A stretch of DNA of 64,000 nt, from sequence record PZ445473.1. One strand, written 5' to 3'. The notes beneath the pieces are model-generated. The model searched no databases. It worked only from the letters and a program-made list of their open reading frames with translations, and was not told where the DNA came from. Shown here in pieces: positions 6,631 to 62,256 of this stretch (position 1 is its first letter; every line of letters begins with the position of its first letter). A program made the position numbers and the translations under genes. The DNA is from a phage.

Positions 6631-8820
6631 ATGTCTAGAGAATTAATGCCCAAATCTGGGATAATGATGCCTCATGTGGTAGTTACTAGAGATGCCGCAG
6701 TTGTGGGTGTGTCTACAGTTGATGGCGTGGCAGGTGCTGTTAATTTAACAGATAAATATCTACAAAAGTCTGATGCTGAAGCAACATATCAAACGAAAGC
6801 AGAAGGGGCTACTAAGCAATATGTAACCGATGTTATTAACCCTATTATGACAAATGCTCTGTTTAAAGATGACCCTTTTGTCAATAATGATACACCTATC
6901 CGCTCTGGTGGTGGTAATGGTGTTGAATCAGTGGATATGATTAAAGTTACTCCCGAGAACTCTATCAAACTAGGGAGTTATGCTTCTTCTGTTCAGGGGG
7001 TTGAGATTCACTCTGCTGGTCGTGTTCAGGTTGTTGATCAGAATGATGGTGGAGTAGAAACTAAGTATCCTGTTTATTCTAAACGTTATCGTCCTGAGAT
7101 TGAGGATTTGCCTTTTGCTGCTATTGGTTCTTATGTTAAAGATTCCAAGGGTCGTACTATTGGGGTTACTCGTACAGGGATTAACTCTGATATCAAACAG
7201 CTTACTCAGAAGGTGACTTTCACTCAACCAGTTACTGTTCCTGATGCAGTTGGAGATTATGATGCGGTTACTTTGAGACAGCTTCGAAACAGTGGTGGTG
7301 GTTCTGGTGGTCCTACCATGAGTGGTATTTCTAACTTTGGTATTGGTGATTTCCACTTACGAGACAGTCGAGCTTTTATCCCAGCTTTTGAAGTGTTTTC
7401 TGATGGGCAGCTTCTAAATCGTGCTGATTATCCAGACCTGTGGGCTTATGCACAGCTGTTATCCCCTATTGAAGACTCTTTGTGGCTAGAAGACCCTTAT
7501 CAAAGAGGCAGATACTCTAAGGGTGATGGCACAACTACTTTCCGTGTTCCAGACCGAAATGGTATTCAGTCTAATTCCCTTCCGGCTCTTTATGGACGAG
7601 GTGATGGTGGTGCTTCCGCAGCTAATGGTCAAGTGTTTGATTCTGCGGCCCCAGACATTATCGGCTCTGTTGCATCATACTCTGCTGGAACTTATGCCCA
7701 GCTTTTTGGAATAGCTACCAATGCATTTGAATCTAACAATGCCTTCTTTCCTGAAGGTGCAGGGGATACAATACCTCCGGGGTCTGGGCCAGTCGATGGT
7801 CGATATAACACTATTGAGTTTAAGGCTTCCAGATATAATGGAATTTACGGTCGCAGTAACTCAGAAATCATGGGTCGTAACTTTGTAGGTGTTTGGACTA
7901 TTCGTGCGCATGGTGGTTTTACTGCTGCTAATACTTCTTGGTCAGTAATCAATAGTGATGCTTCAGAACCACCTACAGGTACTCCTATTACTGGTGGATT
8001 GGTTTCTTCTAAGTATGTAGTCGGAGGTGTTGATAAGTACCGTTCTTCCATACAACTACTAGGTGCTAACGAAGTTGATCTGTCTACGAGAATTACCACC
8101 ATAAATGATAGATATGCAATTGGGGCAGCTACTTGGGATTTTAAACTGGATGGGAAACTACTTTTTAATAAATCACTTACCCCCAATGGGACAGGCTATT
8201 CTCCCGGAAACACCTATCTAACATTAGCCAACACTTGGATGACCTCTCCTTATAGTGGGTATGTTGGGTTTGTTGGGGGCGGCGTTGGTGTTTCTGGTGG
8301 CGGTTGGAGAAACTTCATCTCTTTAGGTTCTTTGATTTTCCCTGATACGAGTCATCCTACTGCTGTTATTTCTCAGGTTTATGATTATGACCTTTCTACA
8401 GGAAACCAACCTAATGGGGATATTGTCAGAAATACCTCTTTCAATGCTGGGAGTTATGATATCACTTTCGGTAACAACTCCGGTACAGTAAACTACCTCT
8501 TCAGTAAGTCCCCTGTGTCTGATGAGAATAAAAAGCATGATATCACCCCCATCAGTACAGAACAAGCCCTTCTTAATATAAACAAGATGAAATACAGCTC
8601 ATTCATCTATAATTATGATGAGAAGAATATTGTTCGCAGAGGCTTTATTGCTCAGCAACTAGAGAAGATTGACAGTCAATATGTACGTAAGTACAAAGAT
8701 GCTACTGGAGGTGAAACACTCTCTTTGGATGAGAACGTTCTGCTTTTGGATGCACTAGCTGCAATCCAAGAACTTACCAAAAAGGTTGAAGTTCTAGAAG
8801 CGAAGTTAGCAGGTAAGTAA
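6631..8820 (+). CDS. tail fiber/tail spike protein with C-terminal intramolecular chaperone (peptidase S74-like) domain
   Basis: 729 aa; C-terminus DENKKHDITPISTEQALLNINKMKYSSFIYNYDE...GFIAQQLEKIDSQYV...LLDALAAIQELTKKVEVLEAKLA resembles auto-cleaving chaperone domains of phage fibers; GGAGG RBS. Confidence 0.65.
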   Translation: MSRELMPKSGIMMPHVVVTRDAAVVGVSTVDGVAGAVNLTDKYLQKSDAEATYQTKAEGATKQYVTDVINPIMTNALFKDDPFVNNDTPIRSGGGNGVESVDMIKVTPENSIKLGSYASSVQGVEIHSAGRVQVVDQNDGGVETKYPVYSKRYRPEIEDLPFAAIGSYVKDSKGRTIGVTRTGINSDIKQLTQKVTFTQPVTVPDAVGDYDAVTLRQLRNSGGGSGGPTMSGISNFGIGDFHLRDSRAFIPAFEVFSDGQLLNRADYPDLWAYAQLLSPIEDSLWLEDPYQRGRYSKGDGTTTFRVPDRNGIQSNSLPALYGRGDGGASAANGQVFDSAAPDIIGSVASYSAGTYAQLFGIATNAFESNNAFFPEGAGDTIPPGSGPVDGRYNTIEFKASRYNGIYGRSNSEIMGRNFVGVWTIRAHGGFTAANTSWSVINSDASEPPTGTPITGGLVSSKYVVGGVDKYRSSIQLLGANEVDLSTRITTINDRYAIGAATWDFKLDGKLLFNKSLTPNGTGYSPGNTYLTLANTWMTSPYSGYVGFVGGGVGVSGGGWRNFISLGSLIFPDTSHPTAVISQVYDYDLSTGNQPNGDIVRNTSFNAGSYDITFGNNSGTVNYLFSKSPVSDENKKHDITPISTEQALLNINKMKYSSFIYNYDEKNIVRRGFIAQQLEKIDSQYVRKYKDATGGETLSLDENVLLLDALAAIQELTKKVEVLEAKLAGK

Positions 8821-8914: not shown

Positions 8915-9133
8915 ATGAAAATGATGAAACAAGCTGCATATGGTTTAGTTTGTTTAGGTGCAGGTGTTGTGGTGTCAACCGCAGTTCCTGTAGGCGCAGT
9001 TCTTCCATTAGTAACTGTCCCTGCTCCAGTAGAGAAACTTAGTTCTCAATGTAAGCAGCGAACCATTCAAAATAATCTAGTTGTTATTTGTCCTGATGCT
9101 GAATCTAACGCTCTGAGAAAGATACTACCTTAA
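8915..9133 (+). CDS. small hydrophobic/signal-peptide protein (possible holin or lysis accessory protein)
   Basis: 72 aa; N-terminal hydrophobic stretch LVCLGAGVVVSTAVPVGAVLPLV; immediately upstream of lysozyme. Confidence 0.45.
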   Translation: MKMMKQAAYGLVCLGAGVVVSTAVPVGAVLPLVTVPAPVEKLSSQCKQRTIQNNLVVICPDAESNALRKILP

Positions 9134-9162
9134 TTTAAAGGGACCACAAAAGGAGGTTAGAA

Positions 9163-9654
9163 ATGGATAACGCCGCATTGCCACCTGTACAACTAAACTT
9201 AAGTCCAGCTGGAATGGAATTCATCATGAAGCATGAGGGTATGAGAACCAAGGCTTATAAAGATTCCGCAGGTATCTGGACGATATGTGTAGGGGCTACG
9301 CGCGATATGAATGGTTATCCGGTTAGACAAGGATTAACGTATTCTATAGAGGATTGTCTAGCTCTGCTAGATAGAGACACACAAGACTCTGTTCGTGCTA
9401 CTCAGAAGAACATAAAGGTTCCTTTACTAGTTCATGAGTTTGATGCACTCACTTCTTTCAGCTTCAATGTTGGCAGTGGTGCTTTGAGCACATCTAAGTT
9501 AAGGAAGGTTATCAATGGAGAGGTCAAAGGTGATGTATACTCAGAGTTTCTTCGTTGGGATAAAATTACGGTGAATGGAGAGAAGCAGAGGAGTCAGGGT
9601 CTTCATAACAGAAGGGTTGCAGAAGCTGATCTTTACACCGAAGGTAAATATTAA
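9163..9654 (+). CDS. T4-type lysozyme (glycoside hydrolase family 24)
   Basis: 163 aa; HEGMRTKAYKDSAGIWTICVGAT matches the T4 lysozyme catalytic region (EG..L..YKD..G..TIG.G). Confidence 0.75.
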   Translation: MDNAALPPVQLNLSPAGMEFIMKHEGMRTKAYKDSAGIWTICVGATRDMNGYPVRQGLTYSIEDCLALLDRDTQDSVRATQKNIKVPLLVHEFDALTSFSFNVGSGALSTSKLRKVINGEVKGDVYSEFLRWDKITVNGEKQRSQGLHNRRVAEADLYTEGKY

Positions 9655-9666
9655 TGGAGGTGCCTT

Positions 9667-10470
9667 TTGGCTATCGAAACTAATGCGGTAGTTGTTACCG
9701 ATTTAAACCCGCTCTATCCTAGAGACAGGGATTACATCTACGAAGGGGCGGCTCAAATCCGCCTCATTAAACAAACATTACAGAACACATTCCCAAATGT
9801 TACAGAGCCAGTTCAGTTGGACTCAGATTCTCTCAATATTCTGGCTAGCAAAGTTACCTTTACTGGTGACTCTATGGATGTTGGTGGGTTGATGATCAAG
9901 AATGCCACTCCGGGTACAGGTGATAGCGATGTTGTCACTAAAGGCCAGATGGAAGCTTTCATGCAGAACTGGATGGCTAATAAACTTTACAGGATTGGCT
10001 CTTACTATATCACTGAAGAAGATATTAACCCCGGTGATAGTTCTTCTCTTGGTTTTGGCTCTTGGGCTAAAGTGACTGGTGTCATTATGGGTACTGGTGT
10101 AGTAAACCCTGATGGCTCTGTCCCTAATGCTCAGAGAGTTGAGTTCCAAGCAGGTGGTACTGGTGGTCGTGTCTTCAATACCATTCGAACAGAGAACGTA
10201 CCTTTGATGACAGTTAATGGCTCCAGCTTCTCCTTATCCAGTAACACCCACAGCCACAATATGGTATTTGGTCGTGGAGATGCTAGTGGTCATAACAGCT
10301 CACCAAACTGGTATAGTCCAGGTGGTGGTTACAGTCAGAGAACTGATAATGACACTCACACTCATACAATCTCTGGTAGTGTAAGTCTTGGTCGTGATGA
10401 TATCTCTCGTCAACCTATTAACACTTTGCCACCATTCAGAGCAGCTCACATTTGGAGACGTATTAGCTAA
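9667..10470 (+). CDS. virion protein, possible tail fiber/adhesin component
   Basis: 267 aa; TTG start with GGAGG RBS 4 nt upstream; Gly/Ser/Thr-rich C-terminal half. Confidence 0.4.
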   Translation: MAIETNAVVVTDLNPLYPRDRDYIYEGAAQIRLIKQTLQNTFPNVTEPVQLDSDSLNILASKVTFTGDSMDVGGLMIKNATPGTGDSDVVTKGQMEAFMQNWMANKLYRIGSYYITEEDINPGDSSSLGFGSWAKVTGVIMGTGVVNPDGSVPNAQRVEFQAGGTGGRVFNTIRTENVPLMTVNGSSFSLSSNTHSHNMVFGRGDASGHNSSPNWYSPGGGYSQRTDNDTHTHTISGSVSLGRDDISRQPINTLPPFRAAHIWRRIS

Positions 10471-53676: not shown

Positions 53677-53958
53677 TCACCACTCCTTACCGGTTGTAGT
53701 TGTAGAGCCACCACACCACTGTGCATTAGATAAGGTTTTAGTCTCCTCATCCATTGCTGCACCATTCATGCATGAGATACCATTGTAACGCATATCAATT
53801 TCGCCAGAAGGAACCTTCTCACCTTTATGCCAGCGAGATACACAAATACCTTCCACTGCTACTGCACACCATCCATCAGGACGGCTCTGTACGCAGCCTG
53901 TAAGGGCCACACAGACAATGAAGATACAGATTAAGGATATTACACCACCCCAACTCAT
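53677..53958 (-). CDS. lipoprotein
   Basis: Signal peptide with lipobox LTGC (MSWGGVISLICIFIVCVALTGC); AGGAG RBS. Confidence 0.5.
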   Translation of the reverse strand: MSWGGVISLICIFIVCVALTGCVQSRPDGWCAVAVEGICVSRWHKGEKVPSGEIDMRYNGISCMNGAAMDEETKTLSNAQWCGGSTTTTGKEW

Positions 53959-54056: not shown

Positions 54057-54131
54057 TGGCGTTCCCTCGTGGAATCGAACCACGAATAAGAGCTTAGAAG
54101 GCTCCAGTTATATCCGTTTAACTAAGGGAAC
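54057..54131 (-). tRNA. tRNA-Arg (anticodon UCU)
   Basis: Hand-folded cloverleaf: acceptor GTTCCCT/AGGGAAC, D stem GTTA/TAAC, anticodon stem GGAGC/GCTCT, loop CTTCTAA, T arm CGTGG-TTCGATT-CCACG, discriminator G, CCA. Confidence 0.8.
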
Positions 54132-54137
54132 ATTACA

Positions 54138-54488
54138 ATGAAAACTTGCACAACCTGTCACACCCAAAAGGAAGATTCAGATTTTTACAAGAAAGGAGAT
54201 CGACTTCATTCTATGTGTAAACAATGTTTCAATGCCTACTGTATTGAACGTTGGAGGCAAAGAAAGACTCAAGCGGTTAAAGATTTCGGAGGTAAATGTC
54301 ATGACTGCAATCAAGAATACCCCGATGCAGTCTTTGATTTCCACCACCTAGACCCCTCTGAAAAAGATTTTGATTGGAATAAACTTAGACTCCGATCTAT
54401 TGACTCTATCAGAGAAGAGTTAAGCAAGTGCGTAATGCTCTGTGCTAACTGCCACCGTATTCGTCACATTGATTACCCTATCCATTGA
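54138..54488 (+). CDS. HNH endonuclease-like protein
   Basis: CTTCH...CKQCF zinc motifs, FDFHHLDP and LCANCHRIRH; lone plus-strand gene next to the tRNA. Confidence 0.55.
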   Translation: MKTCTTCHTQKEDSDFYKKGDRLHSMCKQCFNAYCIERWRQRKTQAVKDFGGKCHDCNQEYPDAVFDFHHLDPSEKDFDWNKLRLRSIDSIREELSKCVMLCANCHRIRHIDYPIH

Positions 54489-54814: not shown

Positions 54815-55277
54815 ACTTTACCCTTAATTAAAACAACAAAGGCCACCCGATTGGGCAGCCTTTTTTATTTGTTAACTGTTATAGATCCAATTACCTTGCT
54901 TGTTACGGATAGTGGACATTGCATGAACCCAGAAGCCTTCCAGTTTCAGAGCACCATTAGTTACTGCATCCATACGTTCAGGGCGGTTCATACGTTTGGT
55001 TGATACTTTCATACCTATCTCTCTCTTTGTTAGTGGAGGCATTATTGCCAGTTGATATAGCAGATAACCCTATTAAAAGGACTACCGACTATCTAAACTG
55101 GTGAAGACTCCCTACCCCTAGAGAGTCTCCTGAATCCCAAACCAATATGTACCCCTACATATCGGAAAGTCTACCGAAAATTAACAGGTTTTAGTCTAAC
55201 ACCGGATGTTCGAGCAAGCTCTCCCTAGCGGTGTGGCATATGCCTGATTTAATAAGTTAATGAGGAACACCCTCACA

Positions 55278-55303
55278 TAGCCCTCTGATAAGCACAAGGG
55301 CTA
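55278..55303 (-). promoter_or_regulatory. conserved hairpin element at gene 3' end (copy 2)
   Basis: CTCACATAGCCCTCT-N-AGGGCTATA, 11 nt past the stop of 55314-55610. Confidence 0.4.
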
Positions 55304-55313
55304 TAAGTCGGTG

Positions 55314-55610
55314 TTACTTGTCGGCTTCAATCTCTTGATGCTTAGCTATAGCTACTCTCAAGTCCTCATTAGCACGAGTAAGGCGTAATACTTCATGGTT
55401 GAGATTCTGAAGACGCTTGTTTCTATCTTCAACTTGCGTAATAAGATCATTAAGAGTTTCTTTAACTTTCTCACTATACATCTCATCCACTCGGACTAGA
55501 GATTTGTACATTCTCTCCCAGCTTGCTGCTTTGTTCCTAAGGATAATAAATCCTATAACGCTGATAGTTAAACAGCTTACAAAAAGGAATTTATATATCT
55601 CTAAAGTCAT
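55314..55610 (-). CDS. membrane-anchored coiled-coil protein (i-spanin-like architecture)
   Basis: N-terminal TM FLFVSCLTISVIGFIIL then charged helical region. Confidence 0.4.
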   Translation of the reverse strand: MTLEIYKFLFVSCLTISVIGFIILRNKAASWERMYKSLVRVDEMYSEKVKETLNDLITQVEDRNKRLQNLNHEVLRLTRANEDLRVAIAKHQEIEADK

Positions 55611-55809
55611 ATTATTTACCCTTTATCAGAGATTAAAAGTAATATTATTTAAGTAAGTTATATTTAGTAAACTTATTTTCTAAGAAATTTTCAAAGGGTC
55701 TATATACAGAGCATTACCCATAGTCCCAGAACACTACCATCTTTTTCAATAAATTTACTAAGTGGTTGGTTTATAAAGGAATTTAGTTTGTCAAATCTGG
55801 CACTAGAGA

Positions 55810-56199
55810 TTATTCCCTAGAGCTATTATCGAACACTAAATCACCACAATACATAGGATTGGCATACCATTTTGGCACCCCTTCGCTCTTACTCTGAAAG
55901 TAAGTCCCACTATACAGCGGAACATAATTCTTCTTAAGGGCACGTTTAGCAAGTCGCTCGCTTTCTCCAATGGCTTGCTTAGTCATCGGATTTTTATCAC
56001 GAATCAGCTTTACATAACGTTTATAAGGTTTCTCCTGTTTTAATAGTACCGGAATCCACTCAAACTGGTTCTTTTGTCTTATCACCTGTTCAGCGGTCAG
56101 TTTTCGTTGGGCCATTCTATTTATCACGGTATCCGCAACTAAAGCCTTACATGCGGTTGGCTGATTCCCTGCCTCATAATAAATAGTCAATGTCAACAT
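55810..56199 (-). CDS. cell wall hydrolase (SleB/Hydrolase_2-like)
   Basis: TIYYEAGNQPTACKALVADTVINRMA ... NQFEW resembles the SleB-type hydrolase N-terminal motif. Confidence 0.5.
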   Translation of the reverse strand: MLTLTIYYEAGNQPTACKALVADTVINRMAQRKLTAEQVIRQKNQFEWIPVLLKQEKPYKRYVKLIRDKNPMTKQAIGESERLAKRALKKNYVPLYSGTYFQSKSEGVPKWYANPMYCGDLVFDNSSRE

Positions 56200-56453
56200 T
56201 AGCTGGGCCGTTGTTATCAGAACTTGCTACCTCCTCTCAGGATAAAACACCTTTCATGTATGCCTTACTCGAAGCCCTCCTTGTGGCTTTTAGTATGGAT
56301 TGCTTAGCCTTAGTCTTAGCTTCTTCTGTCATTCCATCAAAAACACCGAGCTTAGTTAGCTCCTTACTAGGAGGCTTATAGGAAGGGTTTAAAGCATTAG
56401 ATAAATTATGACCATAGGCATGACCACGGCACAATAAAGAAGAAAGATTAAGC

Positions 56454-56819
56454 CTATGGATTTACACATTGACCGTTACCGGATGCGATTTCATTCATTG
56501 ACTCATCAAACAAGGTTAGGGATGAGCGCATCAAGTGATCGACCGTGATTTGTTTACCGGTAGTTTCATTTACCAGTTGAATAGTTTTATCATATGATTG
56601 CACATGATCGAAATCATTTACATGCAAAATAATAACTTTAGGTGACTTTTTACCAGTCGAATAGTTTTCTATCAAATAGGTGCACTGTAAACCTTCCACC
56701 GTATCAGGGGAAAATGTTGCAGCCTTTACACTACCCATAGCCGATAGGAGAACGCCCAGCAGGAGAACGACCAGAAAAAAACCTACAACCATTTTAATGA
56801 TGAATTTAATAAACCACAT
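56454..56819 (-). CDS. membrane-anchored periplasmic protein
   Basis: N-terminal TM FFLVVLLLGVLLSAMG then soluble domain with two Cys. Confidence 0.4.
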   Translation of the reverse strand: MWFIKFIIKMVVGFFLVVLLLGVLLSAMGSVKAATFSPDTVEGLQCTYLIENYSTGKKSPKVIILHVNDFDHVQSYDKTIQLVNETTGKQITVDHLMRSSLTLFDESMNEIASGNGQCVNP

Positions 56820-56922
56820 AACTATAAACCTTTTAATCAGAGGATGTAAGAATAAAGCATATCAGCGACGAATAACGCCACTGTAACGACGAATAAGCAA
56901 CGCCAGAAAAAATCATTAAGCA

Positions 56923-57168
56923 TCATTTTAATCCGTGATTCAGTAGGTTCGCCAGTGATAGCCCACCGTCAAAATAAATTGAACGGAAGTCATCGCGGGT
57001 AATTTCAATCCCTACAGCAGATAACCAATCTTTGGCCTTTTTAAAATCCATGACGCAGAAAGTAACGGTCGGGATTATTACATCACCAGCTTGCAAGCTA
57101 AACGCAATAAAAGTATCACACACAAAACAAGAAAATCCGCTAGACAATTTAACTTCTTTGATAGCCAT
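56923..57168 (-). CDS. hypothetical protein
   Basis: 81-aa ORF. Confidence 0.35.
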   Translation of the reverse strand: MAIKEVKLSSGFSCFVCDTFIAFSLQAGDVIIPTVTFCVMDFKKAKDWLSAVGIEITRDDFRSIYFDGGLSLANLLNHGLK

Positions 57169-57182
57169 AATTTTAACCCTTA

Positions 57183-57671
57183 TTATTTAGCACTGATGCA
57201 ATTAGCTAGGTTGATGTGTACGGTATAAACCGCATTATTCTCACTATTGTAAACCGTGGTGGCAAGCATTGATTCGTTTATCGGGCCATAACTGACTAGA
57301 TTTGTAACAGCTTTCGCATGTTTGTAACGTTGTACAGTGCCAAATGTAACTAGTTCGGGATCGTTATCAGTGCGCTTTAATAGCAAATCATCATTGCCCT
57401 GATTATCTAGTGTTTTGGTACTAACGACCAGACCATCACGGGAAACGTTACTAAATTTAACCTTTAAGACGATTTGATTGGTGTCACTATCCGCACCGTT
57501 ACAGATTAACCATTTGTTAGGTGCATCCTTCACGAACAAACTAGCGGCATTATTAGCAGAAGCAGAACTAGCGATAGCGTTGTCAGAAAAAGAAGTTACC
57601 AGTGCACTGACACCGATGGCTGTAACCAGTGCATAACTTGCCAGATTAATAGTCTGCATTACTTTCGCCAT
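57183..57671 (-). CDS. secreted protein with signal peptide
   Basis: Cleavable-looking signal MAKVMQTINLASYALVTAIGVSALVTSFS. Confidence 0.45.
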   Translation of the reverse strand: MAKVMQTINLASYALVTAIGVSALVTSFSDNAIASSASANNAASLFVKDAPNKWLICNGADSDTNQIVLKVKFSNVSRDGLVVSTKTLDNQGNDDLLLKRTDNDPELVTFGTVQRYKHAKAVTNLVSYGPINESMLATTVYNSENNAVYTVHINLANCISAK

Positions 57672-57775
57672 TTTTGCTACTCCTTAGATAGAATCAATTA
57701 ACTATTGCCACTTCTATAATACAAAGACGGTATTCAAGGTTACTACTCATACTTATACCTCCTGTTTTACGGGCA

Positions 57776-57801
57776 TAAAAAGCCCCAGCCGTAGCCGGGG
57801 C
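57776..57801 (-). terminator. rho-independent terminator (minus strand)
   Basis: Minus-strand GCCCCGGC-TAC-GCTGGGGC followed by TTTTTAT. Confidence 0.6.
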
Positions 57802-57865
57802 AAACCTGAAAGCAACGCATGACCGTTGCTATAAATACACTCGCAAATGCACTTACAGCAACGCA

Positions 57866-57886
57866 AAAAGCCGCTCAAAGGCGGCT
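57866..57886 (-). terminator. rho-independent terminator (minus strand), in tandem with the previous one
   Basis: Minus-strand GCCGCC-TTTGA-GCGGC followed by TTTTTG. Confidence 0.6.
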
Positions 57887-57931
57887 ATGTGGAAGCTTCA
57901 AATGGGGAGAGGGCACGACGCGGCAGAAAGA

Positions 57932-57955
57932 GCGTCATAGTACTAAAAGAGGGGG
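57932..57955. promoter_or_regulatory. conserved element GCGTCATAGTACTAAAAGAGGGG (copy 2)
   Basis: 18-nt core identical to 52389-52406. Confidence 0.4.
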
Positions 57956-57967
57956 GCTGCATTCCTA

Positions 57968-58411
57968 CTACTTAACCCTTGCTTCTTTGATGGGGTCAAT
58001 GTATTTTTCAACTCCCCACTTGCGTTTACTGTCAGCGTAGAAAACATCAGGTGCACACTGGCTTGTCTTAGGAAATGCTTGCGGGTCTTTCGTGCTACCT
58101 TTAAACTTCTGTTTACCACGGGTGCGACCATTACAGAAGATCTCTAACTTCTTCTCTTCTTCTGTTTTAGCGCCACCGCTCCGTAATAAAGAGCGTTTAT
58201 GATCGGCTAACAATAACGCATCAGCACGATGGACACGATGACCTAAACGTTTTGCCACACTGGAAGGAATATGAGATTCAGCTTCAGCCTTTGCAGCACG
58301 ACGCTTTAAACTACGCTTGCTAACGTGATTGGTTGCCTTTGGTTTCTCTTTCTCCAATTCAGAAATAGAAAAACAACGCCCGCCCTTCATGCTGATTTTA
58401 GATTTAGCCAC
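57968..58411 (-). CDS. hypothetical basic protein
   Basis: 147-aa ORF. Confidence 0.4.
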   Translation of the reverse strand: MAKSKISMKGGRCFSISELEKEKPKATNHVSKRSLKRRAAKAEAESHIPSSVAKRLGHRVHRADALLLADHKRSLLRSGGAKTEEEKKLEIFCNGRTRGKQKFKGSTKDPQAFPKTSQCAPDVFYADSKRKWGVEKYIDPIKEARVK

Positions 58412-58480
58412 TATCTTATTCCTTTCAGTGATAAGTTATATCGGGCAAGCCCATCAAGGCGATAGGCTTGAACAAATAAC

Positions 58481-58690
58481 TCAACCAAGTAAACCAAATG
58501 ATTTCCAACTACGCAGTAAGATCGTACCATCATCCATAGTTACGCATAATTTTAGTAGTCGCTTACTGGTACTGCTCACCGTTGTGATTCGTCCGGTTGT
58601 GCATTTACCTTTATTGCTATAAAGATATATAACACGATGGCCTAACAAACGAGATGGCGCTTTCTTAAATTCTGAGATGTTAGTGATCAT
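58481..58690 (-). CDS. hypothetical small protein
   Basis: 69-aa ORF abutting the next gene. Confidence 0.35.
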   Translation of the reverse strand: MITNISEFKKAPSRLLGHRVIYLYSNKGKCTTGRITTVSSTSKRLLKLCVTMDDGTILLRSWKSFGLLG

Positions 58691-58908
58691 TATCCATATA
58701 CCTTAACATGATTGATTCGACGTGAATGATGATAAGAAGACTCAACAGCCATTGCCTTTAATTCTTCTTTTCGTTGGTTAGTGTGTACAATATCCCAATG
58801 ATTATGATCGTGTTGGCGCTGTAATATCTTACTACATTTGCGATGGTTTCCCGTGCTGCGACGTTTCTCACAAATAGGACACTTGCCAAAATTATTACTG
58901 AATATCAT
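58690..58908 (-). CDS. small Cys/His-rich protein
   Basis: GKCPICEKRR...HDHNHWD. Confidence 0.35.
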   Translation of the reverse strand: MIFSNNFGKCPICEKRRSTGNHRKCSKILQRQHDHNHWDIVHTNQRKEELKAMAVESSYHHSRRINHVKVYG

Positions 58909-59132
58909 TTTCTCAATCCTAACTTTCTTAAGACACGGCCTAACGTTGTTTCTTGGGTGATAATATACCTGACCGCTTCACGTTCCAACGTTTCAATCTT
59001 CATTGGCGACGGATACCATTCACCGGTAAGCATACACCTATACTCAACGCCATACTTTTTAGATAGGCGGTAATGTTGACCGTTGATAAGGTTCCTATAA
59101 ATCGTGGTATGCGTCGTTAACATAATCGTCAC
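58905..59132 (-). CDS. hypothetical small protein
   Basis: 75-aa ORF with overlapping stop/start. Confidence 0.35.
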   Translation of the reverse strand: MTIMLTTHTTIYRNLINGQHYRLSKKYGVEYRCMLTGEWYPSPMKIETLEREAVRYIITQETTLGRVLRKLGLRK

Positions 59133-59235
59133 CTTTGATTAGATTCTTTGATTAGTACACTGAATCAATGCACTGATAAAAGAAAAGGCGCTACCCGTTA
59201 AAGATAGCGCCTCATGTTTATTTAGATTGTCTTAC

Positions 59236-60144
59236 TTATGCCGCCTGACGTGCCGCCATAATTTCAGCCGCTTTACGCAATACTTCTTCCTCTTCTGCTT
59301 TCGCCGCTTGTTCGGTACGGGTAGCAACCGTTGAAGAGATACGACCGCGCAGACTTTCTAACTTCTCTTGCATAGCTGCGATGGTCTTTTCCATTTCATC
59401 AGCGTATGAATCCAGTGATTCCAATTCCTTGCTTGATGCGTTCATCAGATAATCATCCGAGATCGCTACCGTTGAGGCCGTCACTTTCTTGATGAGTGAG
59501 TCGAATGACTTCTTAACCTTGCCGACTTCTTCACTTAAGGCAATAGTGTTATCACTGGTAGCGCCGTTGCGCTCATCGGCCAACAATTTTGCTTCAATAC
59601 GGATTGCATTCAAGCGTTCAACTAAAGCGTAAATATCCTGATTAAAATCTTCCTTGTTTTTCGCCGGGATTTGCAGATGGGCCGCCACGTTGTCATTGCA
59701 ACCTTTATAAAAGTTAGGATTATCCACTTCAATTGCACGACCTAAAGCAAAATTCTCGAAAGCATTCGACCAGCGAGCGCGGTTTTGTTCCATTTTGGCC
59801 TTAATTTGCGCTTCTTTCGCATCTTCTTTCGCTTTCGCCTCGCCTTCCAGATTAATCCATTTTTTACGACCGTTCGCCGCCTCGGTGTTAAACTTGATTG
59901 GAGTTAAGAAAGTAATTGCAGTGGCAATAACATCCATATCGCGGAAACGTTCAGTTAACAGAAAATCGACCGCCGCTTGCAATACATCTAACTTTTTACC
60001 GTTGCTGCGAAAGTGCTGCAAATGCCCTAAAAGGAAGTTAGAAACATCTTGTTTAATCGCCGCGTTATTTTTGCGGATGTTGTTTGCCAGCGCGTTAAAA
60101 CCGGATTCTTTTACCAGATTAAAAACTTTAGCCATGATATTCAC
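59236..60144 (-). CDS. hypothetical helical protein
   Basis: 302-aa ORF; GC- and CpG-rich by eye. Confidence 0.45.
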   Translation of the reverse strand: MNIMAKVFNLVKESGFNALANNIRKNNAAIKQDVSNFLLGHLQHFRSNGKKLDVLQAAVDFLLTERFRDMDVIATAITFLTPIKFNTEAANGRKKWINLEGEAKAKEDAKEAQIKAKMEQNRARWSNAFENFALGRAIEVDNPNFYKGCNDNVAAHLQIPAKNKEDFNQDIYALVERLNAIRIEAKLLADERNGATSDNTIALSEEVGKVKKSFDSLIKKVTASTVAISDDYLMNASSKELESLDSYADEMEKTIAAMQEKLESLRGRISSTVATRTEQAAKAEEEEVLRKAAEIMAARQAA

Positions 60145-61062
60145 CTTTCAATTATAAGGGCACTATTGCCCCGCTCGCTATGAGCTTTTAAGCCATTATT
60201 GACTTAGCTATAGTCACTCACTAATAAATAACTATAGGTAAGCGGAGCGGTCTTATCAGGAGTTAACCTTGCCGCTCCCTTATCCGTGGTCTTTCATCTG
60301 GTGGATTCAATTAATCGCTATAAAGAAAGCCGATTTGCCAGCGATGATCAATCACCACAATAAGGCTAGTGTGTCCGACCCTAATTAGTTACAATAATGC
60401 AACCGTCGGCAATATCGTTTACTTTGCTTTCGCTCCCGCCTATCCTTTTATATCAGCTCTTTATCGCTAGTCATCGCCCACTACGGGATACTATTGCGAA
60501 AAAGTCACTAACCGCCTATTATTCCGGCGTTTTATATCTTTCAACGGGTTTACTACATTACCCGACTATGTACTTTCATCATCAGACGAATCTCAAGCCG
60601 TTCGCATCGTAAACGTTCACACTGACACCTTATTGTTAAATAGCAATTCGCTACTCTTTAACCGTTCGCCGCCGCTCTCAATTGAGCGTTAATTCGTCGG
60701 GATTGCCTACCCTGATCAACTTCTTTCACCGTAGCGCCTTTTTAGCTAGGCCGCCGCTACCCATTAACCGTGGGCGATTAGTTTTAGCCTTGCGTGCACT
60801 CGATGAATCCGCTTATCAGTGGTGACGTTTCCAGTTAAGGGATTGTAAAGCTGTTTACCCTGATAATTTAGGGAGCTTTACGCCGTTTTATCTGGTATGT
60901 TTTCCGATGGTCATTATCATCCAACATATGCAACCGATATAGGGGAACGTTTAAATTATTAAAGAGCGGTAAATCTGTCAGTGTGCTTTCTCACACTACG
61001 CAACTGTTAGCCGTTGTGTCGCTTTTTCACTGAAGCGGTGATTTGCTTAGTGACTTGTGCTC

Positions 61063-61091
61063 ATTATGAACCATGTTGTTTTAGTTGTCAA
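61063..61091 (-). promoter_or_regulatory. sigma-70-type promoter (minus strand): -35 TTGACA, 17-bp spacer, -10 CATAAT
   Basis: Plus TGTCAA 61086-61091 and ATTATG 61063-61068; A-rich tract upstream on minus strand. Confidence 0.5.
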
Positions 61092-61372
61092 TCACTTTTT
61101 TAATCTTTTTTCGTCGCTCCCCTTATTGGGAGGATATATCAATCAGCTATATTTGATTGAAGATTAAGCGATGAATGCTTAAACTTATGATTCATATTTT
61201 TAAAGAGCGGTGGAGCATTTACAGCTTAACACGTCGTGTTAGCTTGTCAATCTCTTTTTTTATCGTCTTCTTTGATTCTCTTCCCTTATCTCGCTTGATT
61301 CTATGCGAAAGGGCAAGACGATAATTTTTTAAAGAGCGAGATGTTTTAAGTCATCGCTGACCTTGTACACTC

Positions 61373-61400
61373 ATTATAGGTTAGGCTTTTCAGTTGTCAA
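61373..61400 (-). promoter_or_regulatory. sigma-70-type promoter (minus strand): -35 TTGACA, 16-bp spacer, -10 TATAAT
   Basis: Plus TGTCAA 61395-61400 and ATTATA 61373-61378; A-rich tract upstream on minus strand. Confidence 0.55.
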
Positions 61401-62052
61401 ATACTTTTTCAAGTATTTTTTCACTTTCTAGCCTGATTTTTAAAGAGCGGGGCAATTTCTTGCCTTGTATGTTTTACATCGTACCCGATGGAAATGAGTA
61501 TACGCGAGCCTTTAGAAAGTGCAATAGGGGAAAGCAAATTATTTTAAACTTTTTCACTGTAGGGAAGATAGAAGAGCGGGCTGACGTGGTACACCATAGA
61601 AAACGGCTTGTAAAGCGATAAGAAACGGCCTTGAACGCGCTACAGTGAGCTAAAAGGGAGTAAGGAATACAACCCCCTTAGAAAAGAGAAAAGCCTCATG
61701 GTGAGGCTTATGGGAATGATTTAAAGCATCAGATAGATTATGACCGCAGAACAGACCACGGGAAACGTGCCAGATAATGCGGTAGTAATATTCCACTTAA
61801 ATAATCATCAACTCATAAAAGAAAAGAATAAAAGAAACGCTGAAAAAGAAAAGAATAAAAGAAATAATCATCCACTTTATTAATATATACATCATTATTG
61901 CACTCATAATTATCACCATTGAAACTATTATCAACGTAACTATGGGGATGGCGATAGTTGCTATCCGGTATTAATAGCCTCGATATAATCAAGCCTTTAC
62001 TAGTTCGTTATCAGTGCTAGCCTTTCCCATACTCTTTAAGGGGGCACTAAAT

Positions 62053-62122
62053 AAACGGGTATTAAATGTATAGGATGGTATACACGGGGCAATAACTGCA
62101 CGGGATAGGGCACGGGAAAAGT
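62053..62122. repeat. clustered ACGGG-core repeats
   Basis: AAACGGGTA, ACACGGGGCA, GCACGGGATA, GCACGGGAAAA within 70 bp; TACACGGG recurs at about 62483 and 62622. Confidence 0.4.
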
Positions 62123-62256
62123 GGAACGTTGAAAAAGAAGGTAAAGGCATTGCCAATATCCCTTTTTTAAATGAGGACTCCCCCTTTTTAACAATTCGCC
62201 GCGGAGTGCCTAGCCCCACTCGGTCAAATCAGAATTTTAAACTCTTATATATAAGG

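Follow-up and report, generated by a model that had tools for sequence, protein, structure and literature searches.

The minus-strand block at 55,314–60,144 of the window, the 64,000-nt stretch of phage DNA analyzed here (PZ445473.1), carries small membrane, exported and basic proteins, raising the question of whether it is a foreign island or a regular part of the phage program. The whole window matches PQ850610.1 with 100% identity and represents Escherichia phage JacquesWildberger_Bas92. This phiEco32-like Kuravirus has its relatives among Kuravirus and Nieuwekanaalvirus phages. Published work placed the early genes of phiEco32 and SU10 in this region, with σ70 promoters in the spacer, and assigned the region to the early class with a presumed host-takeover role (PMC4281155; PMC8948821). 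Our analysis favors, with a probability of about 0.7, the promoter-proximal part of an ordinary, genus-wide, σ70-dependent early "host-takeover" operon of a phiEco32-like coliphage. A previous reading made from the letters of the DNA (the sequence-only reading) had proposed a horizontally acquired module.

Gene content and conservation

The minus-strand ORFs listed by the sequence-only reading were all found in place. Eleven of them (D, E, G, H, I, J, L, M, N, O and P) are real genes, with orthologues at 59–100% amino acid identity in all or nearly all of ten relatives spanning two genera. Their dN/dS values of 0.04–0.28 over 8–10 relatives indicate purifying selection, and they are kept in about 94–99 related phage records. 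ORF F (56,237–56,434, dN/dS 0.71) and ORF K (57,753–57,878, dN/dS 1.27), the latter overlying terminators, were rejected as genes. No homologues of known function were found for D, G, H, I, J, L, M, N, O and P, and the protein functions proposed below are putative.

Early promoters and leader RNA

Two σ70 promoter sequences precede the block on the minus strand. The distal one (TTGACA-16-TATAAT, 61,373–61,400) matches 12 of 12 consensus positions and lies outside the block that it would drive; eight of the ten relatives have promoters resembling it 1250–1690 nt ahead of gene P. The proximal one (TTGACA-17-CATAAT, 61,063–61,091) matches 11 of 12 positions, and seven of the ten relatives keep it ~950 nt ahead of the start codon of P. 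SU10 (CDS 115–125) and phiEco32 carry the same genes and the same ORF-free spacer with σ70 promoters, three of them in SU10 (PMC4281155). The distance from these promoters to the first gene is ~0.9–1.3 kb; the physical right end of the genome, mapped to ~62.0–62.2 kb of the window, is ~1 kb away from them. The phage-sigma late promoter motif TAATGTATA had no exact match on the minus strand right of 33.3 kb. Promoter-like sites in 54–62 kb occurred at chance level (20 found versus 19.5 expected), so internal promoters for E, D and the cassette described below can be neither called nor excluded.

The early operon begins with an ORF-free leader of ~920 nt (60,136–61,056, minus strand), beyond the right edge of the block. 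Neither ORFs of at least 35 aa on the minus strand nor codon periodicity of substitutions were found in it. RNAalifold gave 269 pairs in 40 helices, with pairing in 98.7% of all cells. Compensatory pairs numbered 43, versus 20.9 ± 2.9 in shuffles (reached in 0 of 500) and 1–7 in slid controls, and the result persisted once the Suseptimavirus phage UKE3 and E20-1, a phage of similar divergence, were included. A search of Rfam 15 returned no match. The leader is a covariation-supported structured RNA not described before. Like ROOL and GOLLD, it is multi-helix, several hundred nucleotides long, covariation-supported and phage-encoded; like the cis-acting antiterminator RNA put of HK022, it lies upstream of terminators needing to be passed, although it is far larger than put (~70 nt). 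Unlike these RNAs, it is a 5′ leader joined to an mRNA and fits no Rfam family.

Proximal genes and their terminators

Gene P (59,236–60,135, minus strand; 299 aa, orthologue of phi32_124) is the first early gene and is present in 98 phage records. It encodes a cytoplasmic, helical protein with a confident AF2 fold and shows a strong third-position substitution bias. Directly 3′ of P, a terminator-like hairpin on the same strand (59,185–59,213) combines a 12-bp stem with a U tract (ΔG −18.7 kcal/mol, z −6.3), and phage 4E8 has an annotated terminator at the same place. Four genes for basic proteins follow on the minus strand: O (58,905–59,123; 72 aa, pI 9.9, 85–99% conserved, dN/dS 0.28), N (58,690–58,908; 72 aa, 72–99%, 0.25), M (58,481–58,690; 69 aa, 76–100%, 0.10) and L (57,968–58,411; 147 aa, 96–98%, 0.04). 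M to O correspond to phi32_121–123 and L to phi32_120. L is very basic (37 K+R, pI 10.2), and N is Cys/His-rich, with 8 His, 3 Cys and a CPIC...H..KC motif. The small basic or Cys/His-rich proteins of the sequence-only reading were borne out, with pI values of 9.9–10.3 across L, M, N and O.

L is the last gene ahead of two tandem minus-strand terminators. These had been proposed at 57,866–57,886 and 57,776–57,801 and were recovered as T1 (57,886–57,869; 6-bp GC stem and U tract, ΔG −10.2 kcal/mol) and T2 (57,801–57,782; 8-bp stem with 7 GC pairs and U tract, ΔG −19.1 kcal/mol). Both are invariant in 9 aligned phages and in both genome arrangements, and the T1–T2 segment has ~96% identity to relatives versus 88–89% for the flanking genes. 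Terminator-like sites in 54–62 kb exceeded expectation (20 found versus 6.1 ± 2.5). Gene spacing was somewhat loose, as previously remarked (80% coding; gaps of 199, 254, 296 and 112 nt). Of the supposed long AT-rich gaps, the one between D and E qualifies (GC 0.27), but the remaining gaps have GC of 0.36–0.46.

A relocated cassette behind the terminators

Behind T2 lies a cassette of 1,528 bp (56,228–57,755, minus strand) comprising J-I-H-G, a 3′ UTR and ~150 nt of extra sequence. J (57,183–57,671; 162 aa) matches the C-terminal half of phi32_128 and lacks the 128-aa N-terminal extension annotated there. It carries a signal peptide (AIA/S cleavage) and 2 invariant Cys, and its confident AF2 fold predicts an exported periplasmic 8-stranded β-barrel. 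J is present in 94 phage records. It diverges rapidly, forming 72 clusters at 90% identity, a pace to be expected of envelope proteins caught up in an arms race. Its alleles depart from the phage phylogeny, Bas92 J being 88% identical to that of KBNP1711, from a different genus, and 69% to that of IMEP8. I (56,923–57,168; 81 aa, phi32_127 orthologue, 59–100% conserved, dN/dS 0.25) matches phrog_14176, whose PHROG label "polymerase" is spurious. H (56,837–56,926) is a 29-aa single-TM peptide with TM-like hydropathy, kept in 10 of 10 relatives (dN/dS 0.26). G (56,454–56,819; 121 aa, phi32_125 orthologue, 89–100% conserved, dN/dS 0.13) joins an N-terminal membrane anchor to a domain of ~85 aa with 2 Cys; its maximum 19-residue Kyte–Doolittle average, 2.93, falls inside a TM-like segment at residues 1–36, and the label "terminase" of its match, phrog_13168, is spurious. 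The signal peptide of J and the long hydrophobic anchor of G agree with the signal-peptide and membrane-anchored proteins seen by the sequence-only reading.

Among 99 matching phage records, 93 break exactly at window position 56,235, and the junction is spanned only in four phages, Bas92, Bas94, EcoN5 and IMEP8 (6 records). [quoted passage not shown] The 8-bp direct repeat AGGAGGTA flanks the insert (57,756–57,763 and 56,228–56,235). The cassette entered at this microhomology, and the slot that received it behind the terminators is a variable one. The slot holds different accessory genes in different relatives; in phiEco32 these are gp118 and gp119 (YadA-anchor/collagen), absent from Bas92, where the gp125–128 unit has moved in between gp120 and gp117. 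Because Suseptimavirus and Nieuwekanaalvirus carry the right-end arrangement, it is the ancestral one. In most relatives the cassette sits at the extreme right end as a self-contained unit running from promoter to terminator; a small clade had a copy inserted behind the terminators, after which the right-end copy decayed. Bas94, whose right end still carries a diverged extra copy of gene I, seems to represent an intermediate stage of the move. The cassette's own σ70 promoter is present in 4E8, KBNP1711, EcoN5 and IMEP8 and was lost through a ~120-nt deletion in Bas92 and Bas94. An element of its 3′ UTR (56,371–56,429, minus strand) has a second copy, 81% identical, at 61,703–61,761 (direct repeat D1), which marks the emptied right-end site. 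In the alignment, the loop of the cassette's terminator hairpin is broken at the internal site, and the hairpin is intact at 61,709–61,691.

Morons of lambdoid phages are reportedly promoter-gene-terminator units, as described by Juhala et al. in 2000. The J-I-H-G cassette likewise carries its own σ70 promoter and terminator in most relatives and is inserted between existing genes at short sequence identity. It differs in being near-universal in the subfamily and not sporadic, in belonging to the early program of a strictly lytic phage and, in Bas92, in having its promoter deleted and its terminator hairpin broken. J, G and H may act in envelope modification or exclusion, and a superinfection-exclusion role of the cassette is possible. 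T4 Imm and Sp and T5 Llp are superinfection-exclusion proteins of lytic phages; J, G and H would likewise be small, early-expressed and located in the inner membrane or periplasm. The likeness is a functional analogy without homology or fold match, J being a generic 8-stranded barrel.

Proposed order of early expression

Taken together, the block would belong to a leftward early (host-takeover) transcription unit dependent on host RNA polymerase. Strong σ70 promoters would launch transcription through the structured leader into an immediate-early module encoding P, followed by the small basic O, N, M and L, all five of them cytoplasmic. An attenuator 3′ of P, together with the two invariant tandem intrinsic terminators after L, would close this module. 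Polymerase reading through would express the envelope-directed cassette, with periplasmic β-barrel J, I, membrane peptide H and bitopic G, then the conserved E, a SleB-type protein of muramidase fold, and D, which is bitopic, before continuing into the remaining early genes. We infer both the timing classes of these genes and read-through or antitermination past the terminators; the putative split into immediate-early and delayed-early genes has the terminator positions as its sole basis.

Alternative readings of the block

The early-operon reading was weighed against three others. An annotation or by-eye artefact, with chance small ORFs in non-coding DNA, would fit the failure of F and K as genes and the GenBank names "DNA helicase", "terminase", "polymerase" and "tail protein", which are meaningless and derive from tiny kuravirus-only PHROGs. 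The selection on eleven ORFs, the substitution bias in P and the AF2 folds of J and P make this explanation extremely improbable, and for 11 of the 13 ORFs it is already refuted. Acquisition of the whole 4.8-kb block as an accessory island with its own terminators, for superinfection exclusion or lysis timing, as the sequence-only reading had it, draws support from composition. The stretch at 56.9–60.1 kb had been called more GC- and CpG-rich than the phage core; its CpG o/e is indeed raised (1.22 versus 0.70 in the window; range 1.1–1.4, peaking at 1.3–1.4 in 58–61 kb), but its GC is not (0.421, and 0.406 for 55,314–60,144, versus 0.423 for the window). Among codons of the four-fold families (Ala, Pro, Thr and four-codon Ser), the NCG fraction is 0.29 in L–P versus 0.07 elsewhere (Fisher p = 2 × 10−13). 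Since other intergenic DNA is also CpG-poor (0.65), the difference lies at the DNA level. Composition is not uniform, because CpG differs, and the raised CpG falls outside the early-operon explanation. The positionally variable cassette, the hotspot nature of its slot and the exported, fast-evolving J with its discordant alleles also speak for acquisition. However, every gene is found in nearly all relatives across three genera under purifying selection, and the CpG-normal signature also occurs in phiEco32, 172-1 and MN05, which makes it old and genus-wide and places any acquisition before the subfamily arose. The tandem terminators are part of the 3′ end of the conserved L gene and not of an inserted unit. 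The block has neither an integrase nor an att site, 5,426 E. coli genomes contained no match to it, and homologues of known exclusion proteins were not found among its products. With its genes conserved, under purifying selection and of ordinary GC, the block as a whole was rejected as a foreign island, an origin we regard as unlikely; in favor of the acquired module stand the uneven CpG and the positional variability of the 1.5-kb sub-block of membrane and exported proteins.

A second functional lysis set, with E as endolysin and D, G or H as holin, antiholin or spanin-like partners, can also be considered. Gene E (55,810–56,199, minus strand; 129 aa, phi32_117 orthologue) encodes a minimal SleB/CwlJ-type (Hydrolase_2) domain that scores 32.2 bits against Pfam PF07486 (Hydrolase_2/SleB; gathering cutoff 27), confirming the SleB-type hydrolase noticed before. 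It was found in 99 close phage records, with 89–100% identity across kuraviruses and dN/dS of 0.13, and Glu8 of its TIYxEAG motif is invariant. Homologues at 30–35% identity are annotated as endolysins in the sister family Grimontviridae (7-11-like, Cronobacter, Crifsvirus and Proteus phages). Because E gave no sequence alignment to solved SleB structures (HMMER without a match to solved SleB chains), its activity is presumed from one invariant Glu and its place in the Pfam family. E has in common with SleB/CwlJ hydrolases and the Grimontviridae endolysins the domain family, this Glu in the N-terminal helix motif, and the QF and YF motifs; it differs in being a bare domain without a peptidoglycan-binding or export segment, in having GDLVF in place of GNHYF/GKHYF of the Grimontviridae homologues, and in its probable early-region expression beside a separate late PF00959 lysozyme. 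Gene D (55,314–55,610, minus strand; 98 aa, phi32_116 orthologue, 69–98% conserved, dN/dS 0.19) has an N-terminal TM-like segment (residues 3–27) and a charged helical tail. Its GenBank label "DNA helicase" is spurious, and of the TM plus coiled-coil protein formerly described the TM part held, while coiled-coil matches were weak and sub-threshold. The domain score, endolysin annotations and conservation of E and the small membrane proteins nearby would suit a lysis set. Nevertheless, a holin-like gene and a PF00959 lysozyme (endolysin) already sit together in the late cluster at 8,915–9,654, the genes here lie in the σ70 early region without the late promoter motif, and E has no signal peptide, export signal or signal-anchor-release (SAR) segment. 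D is unlinked to the E homologue in Grimontviridae, and G and H are part of a cassette normally 4–6 kb away at the genome end. A second lysis set is therefore doubtful and the earlier claim of one weak; the supposed duplication of the lysozyme at 9,163 fails, the two proteins being of different families (PF00959 versus PF07486). Within the early operon, E may be an auxiliary, holin-dependent cell-wall hydrolase.

Comparison with other early regions

The phiEco32 early region (phi32_116 to phi32_128) also contains ~940 bp of small genes beside D that are missing from Bas92. In phage T7, the early region consists of promoters A1–A3, genes 0.3–1.3 and terminator TE. Bas92 resembles T7 in having several strong promoters for the host polymerase that point inward near the leading end of the genome, and a short first-expressed takeover gene set bounded by intrinsic termination, without sequence homology. 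Unlike T7, Bas92 has a gene for a sigma factor but none for an RNA polymerase, its genes beyond the terminators still need the host polymerase, and its early transcript would open with a ~920-nt highly structured leader.

Identity of the Block and Conservation of Its Genes

The DNA at 55000-60400 of the window matches Escherichia phage JacquesWildberger_Bas92 (PQ850610.1, 67,748 bp; record position = window position + 3721) at 100% identity. This phage is part of the public BASEL collection and can be grown on E. coli K-12 in which the O16 antigen is restored. About 100 related records were found, from phiEco32-like podophages of Escherichia and Shigella, and the annotated relatives belong to Gordonclarkvirinae (genera Kuravirus, Nieuwekanaalvirus, and Suseptimavirus). 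These phages are common in nature and in use for phage therapy, and their early region is known but poorly understood. In SU10, CDS 69-125 are early genes, the spacer separating genes 120 and 121 has three sigma70 promoters, and genes 125-121 form a separate promoter-terminator unit (PMC4281155). The study of phage 7-11 describes this gene cluster as the most diverse and a likely host-takeover region (PMC8948821). Both papers attribute early transcription in phiEco32 and SU10 to host RNA polymerase by secondary citation (PMC4281155, PMC8948821). The final 400 nt of the phiEco32 and SU10 genomes align with window 61844-62190, which puts the physical right genome end at about 62.0-62.2 kb, about 1 kb beyond the early promoters.

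The minus-strand ORFs that the sequence-only reading had listed for 55314-60144 are present. When 16 window ORFs were searched against ten relatives with tblastn, all genes were recovered, each in all or nearly all of the ten, with orthology and synteny to phi32_116-128 and with the order kept except for one cassette. Identities were 69-98% for D, 89-100% for E and G, 61-100% for H, 59-100% for I, 68-100% for J, 96-98% for L, 76-100% for M, 72-99% for N, 85-99% for O, and 91-99% for P. Pooled dN/dS values of these genes (D, E, G-J, and L-P) were 0.04-0.28. ORFs F and K, the latter a 41-aa "tail protein" ORF over the terminators, gave 0.71 and 1.27 and are therefore not genes. In the whole phage collection, P was present in 98 records, J in 94, and E in 99 close and 29 distant records.

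Hydropathy supported a transmembrane segment in D and a long N-terminal anchor in G, and H is a 29-aa membrane peptide by the same measure. A signal peptide is predicted for J. The small basic and Cys/His-rich proteins were also as described, with pI values of 9.9-10.3 for L, M, N, and O and with 8 His and 3 Cys in N. The loose spacing with long AT-rich gaps held in part: coding density is 80%, and only the D-E gap is strongly AT-rich. E was the only protein of the block with a Pfam family. A role in superinfection exclusion had been suggested, and no significant match to known superinfection-exclusion or defence proteins was obtained in Pfam, PHROGs, NCBIfam, or PADLOC; PADLOC and NCBIfam scans of ten proteins gave chance-level matches only. 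E, P, and J had no meaningful sequence match among PDB chains, and fold searches with J returned only generic barrels and uncharacterised phage proteins. P is predicted to be helical (pLDDT 77), had no informative fold match, and belongs to a tiny family with 12 representatives in a profile search of 1.84 billion proteins. Its distant relatives carry only phrog_1448, to which no function is assigned there, and no Pfam domain.

The GenBank names "DNA helicase" (D, 98 aa), "terminase" (G, 121 aa), and "polymerase" (I, 81 aa) derive from small kuravirus-only PHROGs. We rejected the product names of Bas92_0084, 0087, 0089, and 0091 (window 55314-57878) as artefacts of such tiny groups. RefSeq records of relatives carry these labels as well. 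The J alleles (57183-57671) form a mosaic: the Bas92 protein shares 88% identity with J of KBNP1711, a phage of a different genus, and only 68-70% with J of phiEco32, SU10, and IMEP8, the last of which has the same rare gene arrangement. This pattern suggests that J alleles may be exchanged by recombination.

Composition and the Question of Foreign Origin

The block had been proposed to be a horizontally acquired island, in part because its 56.9-60.1 kb section appeared richer in GC and CpG than the phage core. GC content is not elevated, at 0.406 in the block and 0.421 at 56.9-60.1 kb versus 0.423 in the window, which places these spans at the 13th-40th percentile of same-size windows. CpG is raised, with an observed/expected ratio of 1.10 in the block and 1.22 at 56.9-60.1 kb versus 0.70 in the window. 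The ratio climbs to 1.3-1.4 in 58-61 kb, and the rest of the genome shows 0.28-0.97, mostly below 0.9, with the deepest depletion (0.28) at 16-18 kb. The block lies at the 94th-96th percentile for CpG and at the 93rd for Karlin dinucleotide-signature distance (delta*). CpG at codon positions 2-3 occurs at 20.4 per kb in L-P versus 4-7 per kb elsewhere, and the share of NCG among codons of four-fold families (Ala, Pro, Thr, and four-codon Ser) is 0.29 in L-P versus 0.07 elsewhere (Fisher p 2e-13). The depletion in the rest of the genome extends to intergenic DNA (0.65) and therefore operates at the DNA level, with the right-terminal domain spared. This domain extends over about 57.7-62.2 kb, with ratios of 1.1-1.4 for CpG and 1.3-1.4 for GpC. 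The CpG profile is common to phiEco32, 172-1, and MN05, where it spans L-P, the spacer, and the cassette at the right end. These results define a conserved right-terminal domain with a distinct dinucleotide regime.

Of the features from which an island had been read, the genes, the terminators, and the CpG excess thus stood, and the GC excess did not. The patchy presence expected of an island was not found either, with the genes in 94-99 records and only the position of a 1.5-kb cassette being patchy. The block holds no integrase or transposase, and its sole island-type boundary feature is an 8-bp microhomology at that cassette. Recent capture from the host was ruled out, as a megablast search of 55314-62200 against all complete E. 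coli genomes gave no match. The reading as an acquired module is mostly wrong for the whole block, which is core, conserved, presumably early, and no lysis set; it holds in part for the 1.5-kb cassette of envelope proteins, which occupies a variable slot. The island idea dissolves, and the block is the known early region of phiEco32-like phages.

Early Promoters, Terminators, and a Structured Leader RNA

Two near-consensus sigma70 promoters lie on the minus strand at 61400..61373 (12/12 consensus positions) and 61091..61063 (11/12). Nearly all relatives have counterparts, at distances of about 950 nt and 1250-1690 nt upstream of P. The exact phage-sigma motif TAATGTATA does not occur on the minus strand right of 33.3 kb; therefore, the minus-strand genes of 33-61 kb must be reached by host polymerase past several terminators. 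The two tandem minus-strand terminators noticed earlier were confirmed downstream of L, T1 at 57886..57869 (-10.2 kcal/mol) and T2 at 57801..57782 (-19.1 kcal/mol). P, too, is followed by a strong hairpin, at 59213..59185 (-18.7 kcal/mol, z -6.3). All three combine a GC-rich hairpin with a U tract and are predicted intrinsic terminators, and terminator-like sites reach about 3x expectation in 54-62 kb. T1 and T2 are invariant in 9/9 aligned phages, and the segment holding both is about 96% identical to relatives versus 88-89% for the neighbouring genes. Segment 57770-57892 (minus strand) has a folding energy of -54.5 kcal/mol (z -4.7), and its predicted fold includes an 18-bp hairpin between T1 and T2. 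Three pairs of this hairpin are lost to uncompensated substitutions in 4E8, so the 18-bp element is unsupported.

From the proximal promoter to the P start codon, about 920 nt (60136..61056, minus strand) contain no ORF of at least 35 aa on that strand. Substitutions in this leader show no codon periodicity, whereas those in P, used as a control, fall 81/54/629 by codon phase. The leader changes at about 0.10-0.13 substitutions per site versus about 0.23 at P third positions, with almost no indels, and its identity is 85-89% across three genera. Its single-sequence fold reached -282 kcal/mol versus -239 +/- 10 for shuffles. RNAalifold on ten phages gave 269 pairs in 40 helices, with 98.7% of cells paired and compensatory double changes at 43 pairs (104 cells). 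Shuffled controls gave 20.9 +/- 2.9 such pairs and 31.7 +/- 5.2 cells, and 0/500 reached the observed values. Sliding the registers by 1-3 columns left 1-7 compensatory pairs and 36-46% pairing. The set was then widened by the Suseptimavirus phage UKE3 and the similarly divergent E20-1; relative to Bas92, their identity is about 80% in P, about 40% in J, and 85-86% in the leader. With both added, 262 pairs were predicted, of which 48 were compensatory, at 98.8% pairing. The leader is a highly structured noncoding RNA whose pairs are kept by compensatory substitutions beyond the controls.

Rfam 15 had no family matching 54-64 kb at E <= 1, the matches in 60050-61800 at E <= 10 were at chance level, and a literature search found no description of this RNA. 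K-mer enrichment within the leader yielded nothing decisive. A covariance model of one 118-nt leader domain found three Gordonclarkvirinae copies and none in the ORF-free right end, about 1 kb long, of phage 7-11. In that phage, a member of Grimontviridae, about 1 kb without annotated genes separates the first early gene, gp151, from the right end (4365-5417 of its DNA, L016).

The layout points to an immediate-early module that would comprise the leader, P, O, N, M, and L and would be bounded by T1/T2, with the genes beyond being delayed-early. Candidate read-through factors would be the small basic proteins or the leader. For phage 7-11, the antitermination strategy is described as still to be defined (PMC8948821). 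One reading, to which we give a probability of roughly one in five, centers on the leader. Transcribed first after infection from the tandem sigma70 promoters, the leader would control the operon in cis as a large phage RNA of a new class and may render host polymerase resistant to the hairpin after P, to T1 and T2, and to later terminators. It may also gate translation of P through a predicted invariant long-range helix, which would cover the P Shine-Dalgarno sequence and which, for want of any substitution, leaves covariation nothing to show. The CpG-normal domain would then reflect a constraint from RNA structure and expression, not foreign origin. If true, leader-driven terminator resistance would supply the antitermination strategy that has been postulated, but not defined, for phiEco32-like phages. 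An RNA absent from Rfam together with invariant terminators offers a testable handle on how early transcription passes terminators, and the leader, these terminators, and the CpG domain merit follow-up.

Relocation of the Envelope-Protein Cassette

The one part of the block out of order is cassette J-I-H-G. It corresponds to an insert of 1,528 bp at window 56228-57755, flanked on both sides by the direct repeat AGGAGGTA. The empty site of SU10 reads ...CAGGAGGTA|GCAAGTT.... DNA comparison showed 55329-56235 and 57756-61324 to be contiguous in SU10, Paul, 4E8, and MN05; KBNP1711, phiEco32, and 172-1 each have short insertions of their own at this point or close by. In these seven relatives, window 56371-57727 maps beyond a 2-kb spacer at the right genome end, as phi32_125-128 in phiEco32 and CDS 121-125 in SU10. 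A junction query found 93/99 records to break exactly at window 56235, which was crossed only by Bas92, Bas94, EcoN5, and IMEP8. The right-end arrangement occurs in Suseptimavirus and Nieuwekanaalvirus, so it is ancestral.

Traces of the move remain at both sites. At its downstream end, the internal cassette has its own terminator hairpin cut in the loop, and about 150 nt of other DNA come next. In Bas92, the vacated right-end site retains a 59-nt copy of the cassette 3' UTR (81% identical) and an intact terminator. Bas94 carries the internal cassette plus a second, diverged gene I at the right end (69% identity; 9956-10207 of its DNA, L004), a state that resembles a step between cassette duplication and loss of the original copy. 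Upstream of J, about 170 nt are shared by 4E8 and KBNP1711 (right-end) and EcoN5 and IMEP8 (internal); this stretch holds a sigma70 promoter, which reads TTGACA...TATAGT in 4E8. A deletion of about 120 nt removed the -35 region in Bas92 and Bas94, where the cassette probably depends on read-through of T1/T2. The unit is moron-like in having its own promoter in 4E8, KBNP1711, EcoN5, and IMEP8 and its own terminator in the right-end phages, but in Bas92 the -35 is deleted and the terminator hairpin broken. These sites give a base-by-base record of a promoter-to-terminator unit copied between two slots at an 8-bp Shine-Dalgarno-like microhomology, a clean example of phage mosaic formation of which Bas94 preserves an intermediate state.

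The slot behind T2 varies among relatives. It is empty in SU10 and 4E8 and holds a 41-aa ORF in KBNP1711 and an HTH_37 protein in 172-1. In phiEco32, it is filled by gp118 and a signal-peptide protein that combines collagen repeats with a YadA anchor. A 57-aa ORF lies a little upstream of the slot, between L and T1, in Paul and MN05. The phiEco32 protein phi32_119, annotated "tail protein" (7719-8516 of the phiEco32 DNA, L006; slot at about window 56228), has a signal peptide, collagen-like repeats, and a YadA-type anchor (PF03895, E 3.4e-19). It resembles an accessory gene (moron) of trimeric-autotransporter-like type within the early region of a lytic phage.

Protein E and Lysis

The assignment of E (55810-56199) as a SleB-type hydrolase was borne out by a match to Hydrolase_2/SleB PF07486 (32.2 bits versus a cut-off of 27, E-value 1.7e-7), and its homologues carry precomputed PF07486 assignments. 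Glu8 in a TIYxEAG motif is invariant across kuravirus and Grimontviridae homologues; it may correspond to the SleB catalytic Glu in the GEARGE motif. A profile of E homologues had no meaningful match in the PDB and no alignment to a solved SleB structure. The homologues in Grimontviridae, at 30-35% identity, are annotated as endolysins.

The sequence-only reading had further taken E as part of a second lysis-like set that partly duplicates the lysozyme at 9163. The late cluster contains a holin-like gene (8915-9133) and a lysozyme of family PF00959 (9163-9654, E 1.9e-32); therefore E, a PF07486 protein, is not a copy of the latter. Nor does E form a second set: it belongs to the early region, no late promoter motif accompanies it, and the holin-like gene and the lysozyme are located at 8915-9654. 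Inspection of E for export or wall access revealed no signal peptide, SAR segment, wall-binding domain, or extra domain, and it lacks a hydrophobic segment (maximum 19-residue Kyte-Doolittle average 0.29). The most economical reading is that E may be an auxiliary or ancestral wall hydrolase that would reach the wall only through the holin. D was considered as an i-spanin partner of E and rejected: no lipoprotein gene is adjacent, and the genes after the Grimontviridae E homologues are unrelated. D is not linked to E homologues outside kuraviruses.

Neighboring Loci

Immediately downstream of D (window 55319-55329), about 0.9-1.0 kb present in SU10, phiEco32, Paul, and others is missing from Bas92. 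The absent DNA holds three or four small genes (phi32_113-115), and their absence is in keeping with the 67-69 kb genomes of this Kuravirus clade. Further left, an HNH endonuclease gene (54138-54488, plus strand), on the strand opposite to all its neighbors, adjoins tRNA-Arg(TCT) (54057-54131, minus strand). Phage Paul has an HNH gene on the other side of the tRNA, and this neighborhood is probably a homing-endonuclease hotspot. Left of the tRNA, window 53677-53958 (minus strand) encodes a 93-aa lipoprotein with an LTGC lipobox and a match to PF24052 (Phage_lipoprotein, E 8e-36), which would be another early envelope protein.
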